Position numbers and translations under genes: made by a program. 64,000 nucleotides of DNA from a virus, in the IMG/VR virus record IMGVR_UViG_3300046542_000168, positions 32,001 through 96,000 of that record. One strand, written 5' to 3'. This document shows positions 9,814 to 64,000 of the stretch, piece after piece. Positions within the stretch are counted from its first letter, which is position 1, and each line of letters begins with the position of its first letter. Below the pieces are notes generated by a model. It worked only from the letters and a program-made list of their open reading frames with translations. It did no database searches and was not told the DNA's origin.

Positions 9814-9950
9814 CAGGGCAAAAACAAAAAAGTGGCACACTAACCATTTAACATGAGTATTTTTACGAAACAGCGAAATGGTGGCACCGTGACCACTTGA
9901 CAGGTAGGAATTTCATGTTAAGGTCGCCAGACCTTGTATAATACTTCTTA

Positions 9951-10092
9951 ACTCTATTAAGGATTCTATTACTTCTCTACTCTATTACTTATCTACTTTA
10001 AGTATTAACTCTAAGATATATAACTCTATTATATATTCTATTCTTTTACTCTATTATGTACTCTATTAAGAATTCTATTAAGAGTTCTATAA
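9951..10092. repeat. AT-rich array of AYTCTATTA repeats, mostly 12-bp spaced
   Basis: Copies at 9951, 9963, 9979, 10023, 10035, 10048, 10060, 10072, and a variant at 10084. Confidence 0.85.
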
Positions 10093-10180
10093 GTCAGAGC
10101 AGGCGCCGGTCCTCGGCCCCCATCTATAGAGTCCTCCCTGGCTGCTTAGCCACCCCACCCCCTTACCCCTGGAGTCCACT

Positions 10181-10381: not shown

Positions 10382-10501
10382 CATCGGTCCAATAGACTGC
10401 CTCTATTTGTGAAAAGTCCCACACTTCGGTACACTCGTCTCCAGCACTTAATGACGCGGTGGTATGCTGGCCGCTTAGTTAGTGAAACTTGATTAACGAG
10501 G

Positions 10502-10957
10502 TTGACGACCATGACGAACACAGCACATAACATCATAGCAAAGCCCCTAATTAGAATGGCAAGTAAGAAACTCGGACTTAGGATATGTTATCTGTCGAGT
10601 CGCGCAGTAAGTACTATTCAGAAAATGCCCGATGGTAAGTATGTTGTTGTAAACGTCTACGAAAAGAAGATTTCCGAATACACTAAATATTCACAGGCTA
10701 GAAAAGCAGCGGAAAGAGCCTCCATGGTCCCCTTCCGTCGCAAGAGCCCGAAGGAGGTTCCAGATACAGTGCTTCAGGTCTGCCACAAGGCGGGTAGAGC
10801 CATTAGCACAATCCAGAAGATGCCAGATGGAAAGTGGATGGTTGTGAAGCTGTATGAAGAGCGCGTCAATGAGTACGACGAATACTCAGTGGCAGAAGAA
10901 GTCGCAACAAGAGCTGCAATGCAACACGCACCTCGCACCACTAAGGACGCCGCGTAA
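10502..10957 (+). CDS. Hypothetical protein with a tandem duplicated ~42-aa domain
   Basis: RA(V/I)STIQKMPDGK..VV..YE...EY..YS.A...A.RA.M occurs twice. Confidence 0.7.
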   Translation: MTTMTNTAHNIIAKPLIRMASKKLGLRICYLSSRAVSTIQKMPDGKYVVVNVYEKKISEYTKYSQARKAAERASMVPFRRKSPKEVPDTVLQVCHKAGRAISTIQKMPDGKWMVVKLYEERVNEYDEYSVAEEVATRAAMQHAPRTTKDAA

Positions 10958-15723: not shown

Positions 15724-16113
15724 TCAGCCCAGGATAGTTACCCAGCTCTCTACGGACTCATTACCCCACTTCGCTTTCCACTCTTTCAGAGTCTTGTGGT
15801 TGCCACCTTTCGTCTCGATGACTTCGCCGTTGTGCGGGTTTTTGTACTGCTTAACGTGACGCTGACGACGAGTAACGGAAGAGGATTTATCAGAAGCCTG
15901 CTTCGAAGACTTACCGCCGTGGCGACCGTCTGGGTCCATAATACCCAGGATGTCTTTCAACGACTTGCTATATTCGCCCATCAAGCTACGCAGCTTACCT
16001 TCGAATTCCAGTTCTTCTTGCAATTTACCGTCCGACTGGAGGGTAGCCATGCGGGCCTGGAGTTCTTTAATTGCGGCTTCTGTAGCGCGGTATTCAGCAA
16101 TAACTGACGACAT
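15724..16113 (-). CDS. mvaT: MvaT/TurA-family H-NS-like xenogeneic silencer
   Basis: EYRATEAAIKELQAR..ELEFEGKLRSLMGEYSKSL; YKNPHNGEVIETKGGNHKTLKEWKAKWG. Confidence 0.93.
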   Translation of the reverse strand: MSSVIAEYRATEAAIKELQARMATLQSDGKLQEELEFEGKLRSLMGEYSKSLKDILGIMDPDGRHGGKSSKQASDKSSSVTRRQRHVKQYKNPHNGEVIETKGGNHKTLKEWKAKWGNESVESWVTILG

Positions 16114-16207
16114 ATTTGCGTTCCCCATGGGATGTCTGTGTGATGTGTCAGAGGATATACACGGCTTATTATTATGTAAAGCCCTTAGTGTAAAAGTTTT
16201 TTAAAAT

Positions 16208-57177: not shown

Positions 57178-57675
57178 ATGGCTAGCGGCAAGAAAACGGT
57201 TAAAAATCGTACAGAAATGACCGTCACCGATCACACGACTGGGGAGGCTCTATCGAGTGAAAAAACCGTCACGTACAGAGTCCCGAGAGAGCCGGACTTT
57301 GTAAAGGTGTACACCGGGGCCTTTAAGGAGGTAGTCACAAAGAAGGGTTGCCATCTGGCGATGTTTATGCTTCTGGTTGACAAGATGGGGTATGAGAATG
57401 AAATCGGCCTGACCCCGGCCGGTCGTGTCAGGATCTGCGAAGCCCTGGGTATCCAGGCACAGACCTTCCGAAACCATTTGAATGACTTGCTGGAGCGCGA
57501 TGTTCTCCGTCGAACTAGTCACGGAGAGTTCATAGTAAACCCGACGTATATTGCCAGGGGTGAGTTCGAGAAAATTCTGCCCAGGATAGAGGCGTACAAT
57601 AAGATCGGGAGGGTGAAAACTAAGAAGGGTCGGGCCCCGAAGCCTAAAGAATCCCTGGAAGAGTCAACTAATTGA
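57178..57675 (+). CDS. RepL-like plasmid replication/maintenance protein (wHTH)
   Basis: EPDFVKVY, M.YENEI, HTH segment, FIVNPTYIARG. Confidence 0.72.
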   Translation: MASGKKTVKNRTEMTVTDHTTGEALSSEKTVTYRVPREPDFVKVYTGAFKEVVTKKGCHLAMFMLLVDKMGYENEIGLTPAGRVRICEALGIQAQTFRNHLNDLLERDVLRRTSHGEFIVNPTYIARGEFEKILPRIEAYNKIGRVKTKKGRAPKPKESLEESTN

Positions 57676-57778: not shown

Positions 57779-58372
57779 CTACTGGGGTGGCTGGATAAAT
57801 CCATGACTAGTCAGCCACATATCCAGGGCCTCGGTCATAATGGCTTTCTGTGACTTCTTAGTAAACATCCCAGCCAGTTTCAACAACTGGGCGCGACGGG
57901 GATCTAATGGGGTGCTGACGTTACACTCCTTTAGAAACTCCGGGTTGAGTCCCCCTGTTTCCATCATTCCAGTTAGCATAGCAGCCATAGCCGCCATTGG
58001 ATTCTGAGGTGCATCGCTCACTGGTGCAGCTTCCTGTACTGGTTGCGGTTGAGTGGGTGCAGGCTCTACTACCTGGGCAACTGGTGCAGGTTCCGCTACT
58101 TGCTGCGGTTGAACTGGCGTTGGCTGTGGTGCTGCAACTGGTGCAGGGACAACTTCTTCAGCCTGGGCGATTTCAGTCTGTGCAACTAACACAGGCTGCG
58201 GGGCTGGCTCTTCTGTTACCTGGGGCTGAGCAACTACCGGCTCTTGTACCTGGGCTGCACCTACCGCCGAGATGTTATTCACCGGGGTCGGGTTCGTAAG
58301 CATATCTTGAAGAGATAGGCGATCAGCGGCACGGTCGGCGGCGCGATCTGTTCGAGTTTTCTTGGCGCTCAT
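57779..58372 (-). CDS. ParA partner (ParG-like): Pro/Gln-rich linker plus C-terminal ribbon-helix-helix
   Basis: C-terminus NVSTPLDPRRAQLLKLAGMFTKKSQKAIMTEALDMWL; lies downstream of parA. Confidence 0.65.
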   Translation of the reverse strand: MSAKKTRTDRAADRAADRLSLQDMLTNPTPVNNISAVGAAQVQEPVVAQPQVTEEPAPQPVLVAQTEIAQAEEVVPAPVAAPQPTPVQPQQVAEPAPVAQVVEPAPTQPQPVQEAAPVSDAPQNPMAAMAAMLTGMMETGGLNPEFLKECNVSTPLDPRRAQLLKLAGMFTKKSQKAIMTEALDMWLTSHGFIQPPQ

Positions 58373-58409
58373 AATTGCATACCTGCTTAATTATTCAACC
58401 ACTTCTTTA

Positions 58410-58760
58410 AGTGGCCGCGTGATGACGTGGTTGAGCCCTCACGTCACTGATGCAGCGCTTACCTGGGCAAGCGGTCACTATAGCAACCACTCCCCTGCGT
58501 AACCCCTCACGCGATTAGATGCCTAACTGACTGATTCGTCAAGCGATCAACCACGCAAGTGACCATTCAAGTAAGCGGACACTCGGTCAATTAGCCGAGT
58601 CATCACGCGGGTGATGAATCAATCGTTCAAGCAATTGATGGATCAATGGACCGATTGAACGATGGATCAATGAAGCCATTGATCCATCGGATGTATATAC
58701 AACCCATGGGTCAATGGATCACTCGTTCAAGCAATTGATTGATCACTCGTTTGCTTGGTC
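58410..58760. repeat. Centromere-like low-complexity tract between parA and the RHH gene
   Basis: Tetramer mosaic; repeated GGATCAATG, CGTTCAAGCAATTGAT, GATCACTCGTT. Confidence 0.6.
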
Positions 58761-58762
58761 AG

Positions 58763-59542
58763 TCACTTCGCCGCCTGCTTGCCTGACTGGTCATCCAGTT
58801 TGATGCTTGCGTGCTTGCTCGGCTTCTTCACCACCTTTGCCTTGCCCACTTCTTCATTAGTAAGTGGGTCGATGATTACTGGGTTTTCGACATGAATGCC
58901 CAGCTCCATCAGGATGCAGTCGGTTAGGGCGGCAATCTCCCTGGCACCCTTATTACGCTTATCAATCTCGGCCAGGGTGCTACCAGTTCTCAGACAGTTC
59001 ACGAAACCTGCCTTGTAGTGGATGGTAGGGCCAAGCTTCCCGGCAGACGCCAGGGCAATCACTGCATCAGTTGCAATGTTGGTGGTCGGATGTACTTCGT
59101 TCAGTACGAACAGCCGGGGAGTAGTGATTTCTTTCGAAGTGAGGTCGCTCAACGACTTGACCATCGACCACAGGTCGAAGTAGCTAGCCTTCGAAGGCAT
59201 AACCAACAGGTCAGCAAGTTTGAGCACGTTGAAGATATCGCTGTGGCCGAAACCTGGGGTGTCGATCACCAGGAAATCCAGGCCCCCCGCTTCCAGCTTC
59301 GGGATTACTGCTTCTAGCTGATCGATGCCGATAGCCAGCAACTCTGGGTCGCCCAACTCGCGCTTGTCCAACCATGTAGTGGTGTTCGCAGTGGGGTCGA
59401 TGTCCATCATGCCAACGTGGTAGCCCTTCGATGCCAGGGTGCCGCCGAGTTGAACGCTGATGGTGGACTTACCACAGCCGCCCTTCTGGTTGGTGACACA
59501 GATGATCTTGAGCTTACGCTTGAACTGACTAGGGAGTTGCAT
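58763..59542 (-). CDS. parA: ParA-family partition ATPase (short, type Ib-like)
   Basis: NQKGGCGKST deviant Walker A, DIDP, IDTPG. Confidence 0.93.
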   Translation of the reverse strand: MQLPSQFKRKLKIICVTNQKGGCGKSTISVQLGGTLASKGYHVGMMDIDPTANTTTWLDKRELGDPELLAIGIDQLEAVIPKLEAGGLDFLVIDTPGFGHSDIFNVLKLADLLVMPSKASYFDLWSMVKSLSDLTSKEITTPRLFVLNEVHPTTNIATDAVIALASAGKLGPTIHYKAGFVNCLRTGSTLAEIDKRNKGAREIAALTDCILMELGIHVENPVIIDPLTNEEVGKAKVVKKPSKHASIKLDDQSGKQAAK

Positions 59543-59559
59543 GGGTGCTTCCTCTATAT

Positions 59560-60390
59560 ATAGGTGCTCACTGAGTGAGCTATTCCTTGCTAGGTTGACC
59601 GCTTACGCGGCTGAGTGCGTCCGTGCGTGGGCAAGCTATCGATGGGGCAGTCGGTCACTCGCGTAACCCATCACTGCATCAATCGCCTGGGTAATCCCCT
59701 AAGTGCGCAATTCATCGAGCCATTCATTGGCCGATCATTTCACTGCTTGAGTCATCCATCGCTCGATTGGTCGGTAGCGTGCTTCTTCACTTAATCAATG
59801 CGTCAATCAAGTGCTTCCGCACGCAACCCATCAAGCAAGCCATTAGTCCATCCATCGCTTCCGTAAGCACTCACTGGCGCGATTCACCACTTACTTGGTC
59901 GTTCGCTTGCGTGAGTGACTGGTTACGCGGTGAAGCAACTACTGGCTTGCTCAACCACTCCCTCGCTCGACTATCTGATTGCCCGACCGATTAAGGCAGG
60001 AATCAATCAATGAGTCAGTCAACGAAGCAGTTGCTCGATCAACCGAGTCATCACTCGGTCAGGAACTCAATCACTTGCGCCCTTGAGGAACCATTTAAAC
60101 ACCCGCTCGATCCCTTGTCAAACTAATTGATAGCTTAAAGCCTTCATGAATTGATCGTGCGACTGACCGATAGATCGATAGGCTGATGAATTGAGTGACC
60201 AACCGATGGAGCGATGATTGACTGAAGTAATTGATATCTCCATTCCTGAAGCAAGCAATGCCGCACTGATGTGTGTGAGGCAATGATGACAGGACCGAAT
60301 GAACAAGCGTCCAATGGGTCAAGCAATTGATGGATCAATGGGTCGAGCGTTCAATGGGTCAATGGAACCATGGGATGTATATACAAGTAA
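59560..60390. repeat. Second centromere-like tract upstream of parA
   Basis: Tetramer mosaic; shares 23-bp and 14-bp identical blocks with 58627-58702. Confidence 0.6.
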
Positions 60391-60579
60391 CGGTCCTACG
60401 CCGATTCTGACCAGTTCACAGGAGCTAAGCCCCTGCCAGGGCACCCAGGGTCGGCATACCGCTATCCAGGCCAATACCAGGGCAGATACGCAACGTCGCT
60501 ACAGGGGGCTCATAGGGGCTTCAGGCGGTAAATTCGCAGGAGGGTTGCAAGGATGGGAGGAAGTGGATAGAGTGCCGTC

Positions 60580-60697
60580 CGTCGAACGTTGCTGACCCTC
60601 ATAATCTCCCCGGAATATGTTGGTCCGTTGCTTCCTTGCTCTGATCCGTGATTGGTGGCGTTCGATACTAAGCCGCTCCCTCGTGAGCGGCTTTTTC
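60580..60697 (+). ncRNA. Putative sRNA 1
   Basis: TTGCAA-17-TAGAGT promoter (60545-73); GTCGAACG/CGTTCGAT stem; AGCCGCTC/GAGCGGCT-TTTT terminator. Confidence 0.55.
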
Positions 60698-60822
60698 ATG
60701 CCCGCAATAATTGCCTCACAGGGGCTCTATCCCGCAAGGCCCATCGGTCAGATTGTCCTACACCTCAGATGAACGGTGCCATCACTCATTGCGTCAGGTG
60801 CCATCATTGGGTAAAATCCCTG

Positions 60823-60892
60823 GGTTGGTTGTACAGTTCGCCTACTCAGCAACAACATCGAGAAGCCGCCCACACCGGGGCGGCTTTTCTTT
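60823..60892 (+). ncRNA. Putative sRNA 2
   Basis: TTGCGT-17-TAAAAT promoter (60789-817); AAGCCGCCC/GGGCGGCTT-TTCTTT terminator. Confidence 0.45.
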
Positions 60893-60906
60893 ATCTGATG
60901 GAATGG

Positions 60907-60940
60907 CTGGACAGGCGAACAGTACTGTATATAATTACAG
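60907..60940 (+). promoter_or_regulatory. Tandem LexA (SOS) boxes overlapping a sigma70 promoter
   Basis: CTG-GACAGGCGAA-CAG (60907-22) and CTG-TATATAATTA-CAG (60925-40); TGGACA-16-TATAAT. Confidence 0.75.
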
Positions 60941-60941
60941 C

Positions 60942-61033
60942 GTTAACCTCGGTAGGGACTCGTCATCCCTTCACCAGTCTTAGGGTGGATTCGTCGTCCA
61001 CACTTTAGCCGCCTACCAGGGCGGCTTTTCTTT
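60942..61033 (+). ncRNA. Putative SOS-inducible sRNA 3
   Basis: Twin hairpins AGGGA-CTCGTCA-TCCCT and GTGGA-TTCGTCG-TCCAC, then AGCCGCC/GGCGGCT-TTTC terminator; no ORF start inside. Confidence 0.6.
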
Positions 61034-61111
61034 GCTCGATGGGGAAGGAGTAGAGGGAGGGGTAGAGCAGAAATGAAGAAGGGCCTCGATTGAGGCCCTT
61101 GCTTGTGTAGC

Positions 61112-61504
61112 TTATTCGTTGAGAGTGGCCCAACCTTTTACCGCTTCAACTCCCCACTTCTTCCTCCACTCATTGAGCACTGTGTGGTTGCCGTGAGAGC
61201 TAACAATTTTCTCGTTAGTGTGAGGATTTACCCAGGTCTTTGTGGGCCTTCCTCCCTCTGTTGTAGCTGCTGCCTTAGCTACCTTAGCTGCACCTGTAGC
61301 TTGAGCTTTCGGAGCCTTATAGTTCTCATCAAGGATCTGATTCACATCTACCAGGGAGCGAGAGTGCTTAGCTAGGAGAGCACGTAGCTCACTCTCGAAT
61401 ACCTGTAGCGACTTAAGCTCAGGGTCATCCTGAAGAGCATCCAGTTGAGCTTTAGCCGCAGCTAGGGCAGCTCGTGCGAGACGGAGTTGAACGATCTTGG
61501 ACAT
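61112..61504 (-). CDS. Second, divergent MvaT-family H-NS-like protein
   Basis: FESELRALLAKHSRSL, WVNPHTNEKIVSSHGNHTVLNEWRKKWG.EAVKGW. Confidence 0.85.
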   Translation of the reverse strand: MSKIVQLRLARAALAAAKAQLDALQDDPELKSLQVFESELRALLAKHSRSLVDVNQILDENYKAPKAQATGAAKVAKAAATTEGGRPTKTWVNPHTNEKIVSSHGNHTVLNEWRKKWGVEAVKGWATLNE

Positions 61505-61616
61505 ATAGCTCTCTTGCGTGATTGGTGGAAAGTCTTACACTAGCAGTGCGTTAAGTCGCGCACTATAAGCTCAAGTAGCTCGCAACGGAAGAGAGTACTC
61601 AAGCTTAAGCTCAAAA

Positions 61617-61727
61617 ATTCCATCACAGGGGCCTCTCAAAAACTCCATTACAGGGGGTACAGATTTCCTCACAGTGGGGTACTGAATTTCCCTACAGGGG
61701 CTAGCTGAGTTTCCTCACACGGGGTAA
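61617..61727 (+). repeat. Five degenerate direct repeats TTCC..ACAGGGG spaced 21-25 bp
   Basis: ACAG/ACAC cores at 61625, 61650, 61671, 61694, 61717. Confidence 0.7.
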
Positions 61728-61959
61728 GCTCGATCTACCCTGGCTCGATGCTGCATTGTGAGCGTCCCCATTCATTCCTGTCTTAGATAGGTAGCTAACT
61801 ATCGATTTACTTGCATAGCTAGCTATCGATTTAGTTGATTAGCTAACTAAGCATTTAGATGCATAGCTAACTAACTACCTGAATAGCGCCCACACTCCCC
61901 CCTTGAAGTCCGGTATCCGGCCCAGGCTGGCAGTGGCTCTGCCTGGGCTTACGTTCCCG

Positions 61960-61988
61960 CTAATACAGCATAGTCTATGCTGTATTAG
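61960..61988. promoter_or_regulatory. Perfect 14-bp inverted repeat with 1-nt spacer (operator-like)
   Basis: CTAATACAGCATAG-T-CTATGCTGTATTAG. Confidence 0.65.
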
Positions 61989-62139
61989 AGTCAGGGGCAA
62001 GCCCTGGGAGCATTATTTTTTAACCTGGCGCCCCTAGCTTTTAACCTGGCTCGATTCGCCTCTATATAGTCGGAATGTCCAGGGGGCTAGCCTGGGGCCT
62101 GGGCCTACCTGGGGAATGAAAAGAAAATGAAAAAACAGC

Positions 62140-62169
62140 TTTACAGCATGGGCCATGCTGCAATAGGAT
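62140..62169 (+). promoter_or_regulatory. sigma70-like promoter with an operator-like palindrome in the spacer
   Basis: TTTACA-18-TAGGAT, A-rich UP element, CAGCATGG-G-CCATGCTG. Confidence 0.6.
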
Positions 62170-62214
62170 TAACCCCATCGGAAAGAAGCGGCCCAGTAGG
62201 GCAAAGGGGAGCAA

Positions 62215-62997
62215 ATGAAATACCGCATAGAAGTACAGCAAGTTTTCACGGCTCAAGGTTATGACCGTGGCGGGGAATGGTTGGCCCTGGGCGACAAGCC
62301 ACGCGGCAAGGCCGCTGCAATCGCCCTGATGGAAACTATCCAGGCCGCTAGTGGTTTGGAGCCTCCTTACCGCGTAGTCTCGGTTGACGCCCTGGGGGAT
62401 CGCGTGGAAGTGGCGAGGATCGAAAGCCCGCATAAACCGGCCCCTAAGTATGCAGTCGAAGTAACAGACGCCCAGGGCGAGAAACGCCAGGAATTCGAAT
62501 CGCTCCCCCTGGCTATGCAAATGTATACCGCTTGTGTTGACGGTGCCGAGAATGACCCACGCAAGGGCTATACCCGTCGTGTCGCCCTGGTCGGGATTGA
62601 GTCCGGCGATACTTACTATAAATGGGAGTATCTAGTCCCCCAGGCCCAGACCGGCGCTAATAAACGCCCTGAAGGGTTGACCGGCTCCCAGCTCGACTGG
62701 GCCTGTAAGCAGCCATGGTTCCACGCTTGCGAATACTTTAATGAGTTGTCGCGTAACTGGATTGTCTGGGCAAAGGAGGGGGATAAGGTTCACCCCTTTG
62801 CTGACTTTGCGGAGTTGCAAGCCTGGGCAAAGGCTAAAGAAGCCCAGGCGACTAAGCCGGTACTTTATCAAGTTTTCGAAAAGGCAACCGGGGAGGCAGT
62901 TGGCAAGAAGTATCATAATAGGAACGGCGCGGAGAATTATTGCGACGGGTTCCACCCCTACGCCCCCGGCTGTTATGAGGTAAGGCAAGTTCAATAA
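62215..62997 (+). CDS. Hypothetical early-type multidomain protein
   Basis: GGGGAG SD; follows the promoter. Confidence 0.75.
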   Translation: MKYRIEVQQVFTAQGYDRGGEWLALGDKPRGKAAAIALMETIQAASGLEPPYRVVSVDALGDRVEVARIESPHKPAPKYAVEVTDAQGEKRQEFESLPLAMQMYTACVDGAENDPRKGYTRRVALVGIESGDTYYKWEYLVPQAQTGANKRPEGLTGSQLDWACKQPWFHACEYFNELSRNWIVWAKEGDKVHPFADFAELQAWAKAKEAQATKPVLYQVFEKATGEAVGKKYHNRNGAENYCDGFHPYAPGCYEVRQVQ

Positions 62998-63072
62998 TTG
63001 ATTAACCGGGCTGGCCCCTACCTGGGGCCAGTCATTAAAGAATCGGCCTAGTAAGGCAAAGGAGTTATAAAG

Positions 63073-63348
63073 ATGTCGGACCAACAAAAGACCATAGCCC
63101 AGGTGGTTATGGCCCTGGTAAGCCAGGGGAAAGCCGCTGTAACGTTAGAAGGGGGCTATGCCGTCGATTATGCCGGAAAGCGTACTATGTTCGCCCCTGG
63201 TCACGTTGTATCTGAAAAGCGCAATAAAGCCGGACGTTGTACAGCCCTGGTCGTAAGCTATAAGGATAATTCTGTATTGTCCTTTACATGGTCGGAAAAT
63301 GCCGGGGCCCGTTATCAGGTTAAACCGTCGATTAAGGGGAGCAATTAA
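63073..63348 (+). CDS. Hypothetical protein
   Basis: AAGGAG SD. Confidence 0.75.
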   Translation: MSDQQKTIAQVVMALVSQGKAAVTLEGGYAVDYAGKRTMFAPGHVVSEKRNKAGRCTALVVSYKDNSVLSFTWSENAGARYQVKPSIKGSN

Positions 63349-63349
63349 A

Positions 63350-63619
63350 ATGCTAAAGGCCCATTTTATTCGCGACACTATAGACGCCGACAAAGGCGCC
63401 CCGCGTGTGGTCCGGGTTATCCTTTGCGATAATCATGGTTATCTAACGTATGCGGGGGAGTGTGGCTGCTCCCGCCAGCACGATTACCAACGCTTTGCAG
63501 TAGTCGGCACTTCCTACGGCTGGCTACATAATACCGCCGGTGATAAACGTTTCTGGCAATCTGAATCGGGCGCCCGCCATGCTCTTAAAAATTATCAGGG
63601 GGTTGACCATGCCAACTAA
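63350..63619 (+). CDS. Hypothetical protein
   Basis: GGGGAG SD before ATG 63350. Confidence 0.7.
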   Translation: MLKAHFIRDTIDADKGAPRVVRVILCDNHGYLTYAGECGCSRQHDYQRFAVVGTSYGWLHNTAGDKRFWQSESGARHALKNYQGVDHAN

Positions 63620-63950
63620 TAAACCTTTGCAGGCCGTCACCCTGTTACTTGATAGTAACCGTGGGGTTTATATCCCGCGTGACTTCCTGGCCCCTGGTAC
63701 TAACTTGCCAGACTGGGACCACTGCCAATCCTGGGGCCTTACTTCTGAAAATCAGGGGCAATGGATAGCAGCTTGTCACCCTGGGAACGATGCCTACTGG
63801 GACGCCTGGACCTGGATTCTGGACAATGCCGAGTTTAAAGACGCAGACGGCAACTTATACCGCTTGCATCATGACGGGGATTTGTTCGGCTTGTGTTATG
63901 AGCGTATGACGCCAGAAGAGCGTGCGAACTTCGGATTTGATGAGGATTAA
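63609..63950 (+). CDS. Hypothetical acidic protein
   Basis: AGGGGG SD; LLDSNRGVYIP..YWDAW..ILDNA..L.HDGDL. Confidence 0.72.
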   Translation: MPTNKPLQAVTLLLDSNRGVYIPRDFLAPGTNLPDWDHCQSWGLTSENQGQWIAACHPGNDAYWDAWTWILDNAEFKDADGNLYRLHHDGDLFGLCYERMTPEERANFGFDED

Positions 63951-64000
63951 AAAATGGCTAGTACTTCAGCCCCTGGGCAGGCTCGCAAGCCGGTAAACGT

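Follow-up and report, generated by a model that had tools for sequence, protein, structure and literature searches.

What could a pair of LexA-type operators be doing in front of a transcription unit that encodes no protein? The question is raised by a short unit in a stretch of viral DNA of 64,000 nt (the window), which spans bases 32001-96000 of a complete IMG/VR virus record of 107,407 bp with terminal repeats (G000). The earlier note on this DNA had proposed that the unit makes a non-coding RNA serving as an antirepressor or induction switch, either by titrating a dimeric protein with its twin hairpins or by pairing with a target.

Judged by the large terminase, the nearest named relatives of the phage are the Pseudomonas phages phiPMW and SYP (~100 kb), at just 42% identity. 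The phage appears to be of Pseudomonas type, and it looks temperate without a lambda-type self-cleaving repressor, because a tyrosine recombinase is present, a search of the phage genome found no Peptidase_S24 domain, and the HTH search of the genome returned a single weak HTH_3-type ORF. Since the recombinase, ParA and RepL are present but a Peptidase_S24 repressor is not, indirect LexA-dependent sensing of damage is plausible. In IMG/VR, the ParA protein has only distant matches (at most 31% identity). The genome encodes two MvaT-like xenogeneic-silencer paralogues, at 15724-16128 and next to the RNA unit, and the DNA-binding-domain match is far better for the first (E 9e-22) than for the second (E 2e-6). 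The features of the locus and of the genes discussed below are collected in the table.

Table. Coordinates of the RNA unit, its neighbours and related genes (window numbering unless stated otherwise).
Feature	Position	Strand	Remarks
RepL-like gene	57178-57675		
ParA gene	58763-59542		
Long repeat array, then ~700 bp with three plus-strand terminators	between ParA gene and MvaT-like gene		
LexA-type box 1, CTGGACAGGCGAACAG	60907-60922		over the -35 hexamer; weak in the window phage
Sigma-70-type promoter, TGGACA-16-TATAAT	60908-60935	+	11 of 12 consensus positions
LexA-type box 2, CTGTATATAATTACAG	60925-60940		over the -10 hexamer and start site; near consensus
Non-coding RNA, ~93 nt	60941-61033	+	start placed within 60939-60942
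Unpaired 5' tail, CGUUAACCUCG	60941-60951	+	candidate seed for the 148-aa gene
Hairpin 1, GGGA[CUCGUCA]UCCC	60955-60969	+	
Single-stranded linker, UUCACCAGUCUUAG	60970-60983	+	
Hairpin 2, GUGGA[UUCGUCG]UCCAC	60982-61005	+	variable between relatives
Intrinsic terminator (8-bp stem, 4-nt loop, U tract)	stem-loop 61007-61026, through 61033	+	
MvaT-like silencer gene	61112-61504		convergent to the RNA unit
SD (GAGG) and start (AUGACGAA) of 148-aa gene	10497-10518	+	
148-aa gene	10511-10957	+	inside the window, ~50 kb from the RNA unit
Tyrosine recombinase gene, XerC/D- or Cre-like	G000:C1:2144-3076 (L076:2144-3076)		outside the window; SAM-like N-terminal domain; also in G001

Two relatives were compared with the window phage: a metagenome contig (L064), whose MvaT-like protein is 69% identical to that of the window phage, and an IMG/VR genome of 105,402 bp (L068/G001). 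The latter was found through the 92-aa protein discussed below, and the whole genome was then compared, which gave 88 pairs of reciprocal orthologues that average 70% identity. Several further contigs of ~100 kb also encode homologues of the adjacent MvaT-like protein. The arrangement is syntenic in all three phages: a promoter with tandem boxes is followed by a short RNA and its terminator, and the unit faces the MvaT-like gene.

The earlier note had described two adjacent CTG-N10-CAG boxes over the -35 and -10 elements, the second near consensus, and we confirmed both at 60907-60940. The CTG-N10-CAG pattern has 57 matches in the 107,407-bp genome, and box 2 is the only one with a spacer made up entirely of A/T (10/10), the remaining matches genome-wide having at most 7 of 10 A/T positions. 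Box 1 taken alone is at chance level (spacer 4/10 A/T). Because both relatives carry a second box at the identical 2-bp gap (CTGTACATTCACACAG in L068, TTGTACAAAGATACAG in L064), the tandem operator arrangement is conserved. Box 2 is kept in both, and box 1 is canonical in L068 (CTGT...ACAG) and reads TTGT...ACAG in L064; the equivalent promoters are TGTACA-16-TATACT and TTGTAC-17-TAAAAT, respectively. In the 105-kb genome of G001, the sole CTGT-N8-ACAG sequence genome-wide is box 1 of this same promoter (CTGTACATTCACACAG). The unit thus has the hallmarks of a gammaproteobacterial SOS promoter, namely a CTGT-N8-ACAG palindrome with an A/T-rich centre (box 2; box 1 in G001) and operators overlapping the core promoter and start site, in the same layout in L064 and L068. 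The promoter lies under predicted LexA-type operators, and neither of the two complete genomes has a better site of this kind, if it has another at all. A long inverted repeat across the region (60831-60859 and 60897-60925) was taken as a chance occurrence and is not conserved in L064.

We found that the predicted transcript of ~93 nt carries the twin hairpins and terminator described before, and no ORF above 7 codons, the longest being conserved in neither L064 nor L068. The reading that the product is an RNA and not a protein is supported; the LexA-type operators over its promoter are conserved in three related phages. A U-rich stretch (ACACUUUAG) precedes the terminator. The fold has a z-score of -3.9 for the whole RNA and of -0.9 without the terminator; the two hairpins are thus thermodynamically modest. 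Their shared 13-nt motif, GGANTCGTCNTCC, has exactly two copies in the genome, both in these hairpins. With its own promoter, a terminator with a U tail, a U-rich stretch and conserved single-stranded seeds, the unit has the architecture of a trans-acting sRNA of the Hfq type. On the opposite strand no ORF was found across the RNA, which sets it apart from cis-antisense RNAs of the OOP or sar type; the convergent MvaT-like gene reaches only to 61112 and is set off by a terminator of its own. The locus contains no small hydrophobic toxin ORF of the kind found in type I toxin-antitoxin systems, and no protein-coding gene follows the LexA boxes, as it would for a LexA-controlled protein antirepressor.

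Database searches gave no match for the RNA. An Rfam scan of 58000-64000 at E up to 10 found none on it, and L068 had none at gathering score; blastn of the locus against phage and plasmid collections found none either. Exact and degenerate DNA patterns for the twin hairpins, the seed of the neighbouring middle cassette and the LexA/promoter block had no match in IMG/VR, and the pattern for the middle cassette had none in the genome contig collection. An MvaT-like alignment search had no match in either of these two collections. Public contigs of an independent soil metagenome hold an identical copy of the locus, and a copy with 94% identity is found in runs of a coded organism (X3 and X4), which may be a cultured carrier of the phage. 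The sole change listed inside the RNA of the X3 copy is 60996 G>A, by which hairpin 2 gains a U-A pair in place of U.G. None of the public sequencing runs listed for the locus is an RNA run.

The conservation within the RNA is uneven. Between the window phage and G001, positions 5-12 (AACCUCGG), 16-27 (GGACUCGUCAUCC) and 29-42 (CUUCACCAGUCUUAG) are invariant, and the differences are found at position 4, in the outer stem of hairpin 1 and over most of hairpin 2. Accordingly, the linker is invariant in L068, and GGACUCGUCAUCC of hairpin 1 is unchanged both there and in the X3 variant. Hairpin 2 of L068 has the loop CUCGUCA and a U-A to C-G exchange in its stem. The RNA of L064 folds into a single hairpin with the loop CUGGUCC, its apical stem differing from that of hairpin 1 by a compensatory G-C to A-U exchange, and hairpin 2 is absent; it retains CCUUCACC and a U-rich stretch ahead of the terminator, and its seed reads CCUUCACCUUCUUUAA. 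The terminator is conserved in both relatives. This pattern fits an RNA that would act through exposed segments and not through paired, protein-binding hairpins. As a separate observation, the two hairpins of G001 share an identical 14-nt core, CGGACTCGTCATCC (L068:146-285), and are more alike than hairpin 2 is between the phages, a likeness that points to concerted evolution or to selection for having both anti-AUGACGA loops the same.

The search for YGACGA targets that the earlier note had suggested led to a conserved early gene for a 92-aa protein. The longest complement of the RNA genome-wide is a 12-mer, AAGACUGGUGAA, which is followed by a 3x3 internal loop and then by AUGACGA. This site (G000:C1:102869-102890; L067:6869-6890) comprises the SD (GGUGA) and the start codon of a 92-aa ORF lying ~10 kb downstream. 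Twelve nucleotides of the linker are perfectly complementary to the SD region, and the loop and 3' arm of hairpin 1 (UCGUCAU) are complementary to AUGACGA at the start of the gene. In a blastn-short search, the site was the best non-self match genome-wide (19/22, E 0.11; runner-up E 1.5). Cofolding gave a ddG of -24.5 kcal/mol, which ranked first among 187 initiation regions (mean -6.5, sd 3.5), and the initiation region of the G001 orthologue, at -20.2, ranked second of 170. When the two genomes were combined by summed z-scores, the 92-aa pair came first of the 88 orthologue pairs (-8.2; next -5.6), an agreement that is not independent, as both partners are conserved in sequence.

The differences between the two genomes bear on this pairing. 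The upstream ORF of G001 stops earlier, so that the site is intergenic there, and 11 of the 12 bases of the 12-mer are retained; opposite the only altered base (C to U) the RNA has a G, so that a G.U pair is kept, and AUGACGA is unchanged. The segments of the RNA that are invariant coincide with those that would pair, and hairpin 2 and the outer stem are the parts that vary. Even the very different RNA of L064 aligns antisense to the SD site of the window phage's gene, a result reached by 46 of 2000 shuffles. Across the RNA-mRNA duplex, the comparison of the window phage with G001 yielded no clean case of a double compensatory change, and most sequence differences weaken the pairing and do not compensate. 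In the window phage, part of the site overlaps the coding end of the upstream gene, where ribosomes translating that gene could displace the RNA. Hairpin 2 was also considered as a partner of GACGGCGAA, upstream of the target, and this pairing was dropped because G001 does not conserve it.

The 92-aa gene is itself real, because its protein has nine homologues of 54-81% identity on contigs of similar size (~103-108 kb), and most of these proteins begin with MT.... The gene closes an early operon, and a strong terminator lies behind it. Searches of Pfam and PHROGs gave no match for it or its neighbours, ESM Atlas gave no lead for either the 92-aa or the 148-aa protein, and the AlphaFold2 model of the 92-aa protein (pLDDT 60) was too poor for a fold search. 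The operon promoter ahead of the gene carries the palindrome CAGCAT-N5-ATGCTG, which we found at six sites of the early region (G000:C1:93966, 94144, 96958, 99806, 103519 and 105315), most of them in promoter-like contexts.

A second candidate for pairing is the 148-aa gene. The 5' tail of the RNA is complementary to CGAGGUUGACG at 10497-10507, with 10 Watson-Crick pairs and one G.U, and may thus block the SD of this gene too. In G001, the tail (CGUCAACCUC) forms a perfect 10-mer with the SD of the orthologue, position 4 of the RNA being C and not U opposite the same G. The gene also starts with AUGACGA, the complement of both hairpin loops, and lies directly upstream of the only, weak HTH-type ORF; it ranks fourth of the 88 orthologue pairs, which is not significant alone. 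The 148-aa protein consists of an internal duplication of a ~50-aa unit, RA[VI]STIQKMPDGK[YW]xVV..., for which a family search found no family. Upstream of the gene, an A/T-rich array of CTCTATTA and TTCTATTA repeats (9940-10095) looks like iterons or a protein-binding array.

How specific is the 92-aa match? In the scans of RNAduplex type, which lack accessibility terms, shuffled sequences scored equally well. Shuffle tests for this best target gave p of ~0.02-0.07: the ungapped pairing score was reached by 17 of 1000 shuffles, and the cofold value by 2 of 28 shuffled RNAs, a control that is biased since shuffles lose their own structure. These values leave room for an SOS-induced sRNA whose real targets lie elsewhere, in host mRNAs or other phage messages, the 92-aa match being fortuitous. 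The 5' tail AACCUCGG reads as a generic anti-SD-like seed, several further initiation regions score moderately, and the targets searched were those of phage genomes. On the other hand, the top match is on the sense strand and coincides precisely with an SD and AUG; it is also the top combined match in two genomes and falls on the invariant segments of the RNA. We consider targets elsewhere to be unlikely, though they are the strongest of the alternatives. The 92-aa gene is the leading candidate target, and we keep it as a candidate only, because the shuffle p values are moderate, the two genomes are not independent and no clean compensatory change was found.

A further alternative dispenses with pairing. 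LexA-controlled transcription might itself be what matters, either by reading through antisense into the MvaT-like gene or by a local effect on the adjoining partition and replication module. The promoter and operators are indeed the best conserved part of the unit. In each of the three phages the unit is directed at the 3' end of the MvaT-like gene, and the purine-rich stretch that separates the two terminators is partly conserved. However, each of the three phages has a strong intrinsic terminator at the end of the RNA, and the second terminator shields the MvaT-like gene. Moreover, transcription alone would not call for the invariance of particular internal segments of the RNA amid others that drift. 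We regard this explanation as improbable.

Protein titration, one of the two modes of action offered by the earlier note, fares worse still than transcription alone. The twin hairpins would here be a decoy for a dimeric RNA- or DNA-binding protein, and they do present near-identical motifs of 13-14 nt, ~31 nt apart; the L068 hairpins match each other along 14 nt, a hint of concerted evolution. Against this, L064 has one hairpin with another loop (CUGGUCC), the genome has no further copy of the motif as a DNA site, and no candidate partner protein was found. Titration is further disfavoured by the variability of hairpin 2 next to an unvarying hairpin 1 and linker. The loops also lack the GGA motifs of Csr/Rsm-type binding sites, in L064 as well, and a sponge of this type was dropped. 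We therefore think a decoy very improbable; of the two modes, pairing with a target is the one that gained a candidate, the 92-aa gene. Least probable of all is that the unit does nothing at present, being the relic of a gene for a LexA-controlled protein or assembled by chance, since, even though the hairpins alone are no more stable than shuffles, the promoter, operators, RNA segments and terminator are conserved amid strongly diverged intergenic DNA, and the locus recurs in an independent soil metagenome and, at 94% identity, in the runs of the coded organism.

Two further plus-strand cassettes precede the LexA-controlled unit. The first (60545-60698; promoter TTGCAA-17-TAGAGT, terminator at 60672) contains CGUGAUUGGUGG (60647-60658), a perfect complement of 61517-61528 in the 5' UTR of the MvaT-like mRNA, 13-24 nt upstream of its AUG. 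This cassette is absent from L064 and G001, and G001 has in its place an ORF that is XRE-type as judged by eye. A 187-nt contig over 60504-60688, with 8 differences, was found in a wastewater run labelled RNA-Seq cDNA; it is not evidence of expression, because the run is rated as probably DNA. The middle cassette (60775-60895) surpasses the LexA-controlled one in conservation. The promoter, TTGCGT-17-TAAAAT, has the invariant spacer GGTGCCATCATTGG, with a second copy of GGTGCCATCA 22 bp upstream, and is followed by an RNA of ~70 nt with a seed-like GUUCGCCUACUYAGCAACRACA and by a terminator. L064 shares the seed-like segment, L068 has kept it only in part, and a target search with this RNA gave no convincing target. 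Downstream of the LexA-controlled unit, the purine-rich block GGGGAAGGAGTAGAGGGAGGGG (61042-61062) lies between the terminators of the non-coding RNA and the MvaT-like gene. It is partly conserved in L064, where it is complementary to the hairpin loop and 3' arm of L064's own RNA (CUGGUCCUUC).

From the promoter, operators, terminator, conservation and complementarity seen in the sequence, we infer that the unit is the gene for a DNA-damage-inducible, trans-acting antisense sRNA of a temperate phage, a reading whose chances we put at about even. In undamaged cells, dimers of host LexA would bind the two abutting operators, which cover the -35, the -10 and the start site, and shut a strong, host-type promoter. 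Upon damage, LexA would be cleaved, and a burst of ~93-nt RNA ending at its own terminator would follow. The linker (UUCACCAGUCUU) and the loop of hairpin 1 (UCGUCAU) would then pair in vivo with the SD region and AUG of the 92-aa gene. Such pairing would be repressive, blocking ribosome binding and probably exposing the message to decay, and the result would be a discoordinate shut-off of the distal gene in the early operon; the 5' tail would perhaps do the same at the SD of the 148-aa gene. As to lysogeny, the outcome might be to promote induction, to prevent lysogeny in damaged cells or to serve plasmid maintenance.

The antirepressor or induction switch of the earlier note is a plausible role for such an RNA. 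A stricter version holds that the RNA would be the phage's only damage sensor, an RNA 'antirepressor' that decides induction by pairing: by silencing a maintenance or immunity function (the 92-aa gene, perhaps also the operon of the 148-aa gene and the HTH-type ORF), the sRNA would release the lytic programme. This version we find doubtful on present sequence evidence. If it were true, induction would be decided by RNA pairing and not by a protein antirepressor or by cleavage of a repressor. Temperate phages sense host DNA damage by self-cleavage of the repressor or through LexA-controlled protein antirepressors, and lambda OOP hints at a further route, through RNA, for which a decisive part has, to our knowledge, never been demonstrated. 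If the only unit wired to the SOS response in a large temperate phage made a trans-acting RNA under LexA control, such a route would be added to these. The case is directly testable, as the operators, the RNA and a predicted target with defined base pairs are known, and the related phages offer natural variants.

Preventing lysogeny in damaged cells is also the role that has been proposed for lambda OOP. Like the RNA proposed here, OOP is a short phage antisense RNA with its own promoter and terminator and a LexA site at the promoter: the pO promoter carries a LexA-binding sequence (PMC5869508), and OOP lowers cII expression, with a minor contribution after SOS induction (PMC2327240). However, OOP is encoded in cis, where it overlaps cII at the 3' end, and it works by way of RNase III, whereas no gene lies opposite our RNA, which would act in trans on an initiation region ~10 kb away. 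The two have no sequence or Rfam relation.

In phages with LexA-controlled protein antirepressors, a LexA box far from the immunity region senses damage where the repressor is not self-cleaving (PMC3121763). The window phage resembles those encoding 186 Tum, N15 AntC and Gifsy GfoA/GftA in having no Peptidase_S24 domain, but their LexA-controlled product is a protein, and here no ORF exceeds 7 codons. The comparison with N15 is an analogy only, the window phage being unrelated to it.

In the IstR-2/tisB system of E. coli, a LexA-controlled small RNA is made from an SOS promoter. The likeness lies in both being LexA-controlled small RNAs, LexA control being predicted in our case (for context, see PMC2577331). 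In contrast, IstR belongs to a type I toxin-antitoxin locus with an adjoining small hydrophobic toxin, and the candidate targets here, unlike tisB, encode soluble-looking proteins of 92 and 148 aa and are distant (10 and 50 kb).

The C4 RNA pairs with its target at two sites. C4 of P1/P7 (immI) and its N15 counterpart share with our RNA a small size and short exposed segments that pair, or in our case would pair, with the initiation region of a target (PMC8201110). In P1, C4 RNA holds the antirepressor down, and pairing of this type controls the lysis-lysogeny circuit (PMC8201110). C4 differs in being processed from the transcript of its own target, in being made in lysogens and in not being LexA-controlled. 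The Rfam scan at E up to 10, which had no match on our RNA, would have included the C4 model if Rfam has one (we take it to be RF01695). By sequence, model or architecture, the predicted RNA is thus a member of none of the three groups formed by OOP, the protein antirepressors and C4. As read from its sequence, it would combine the LexA gate of OOP and the protein antirepressors with the trans-pairing logic of C4.
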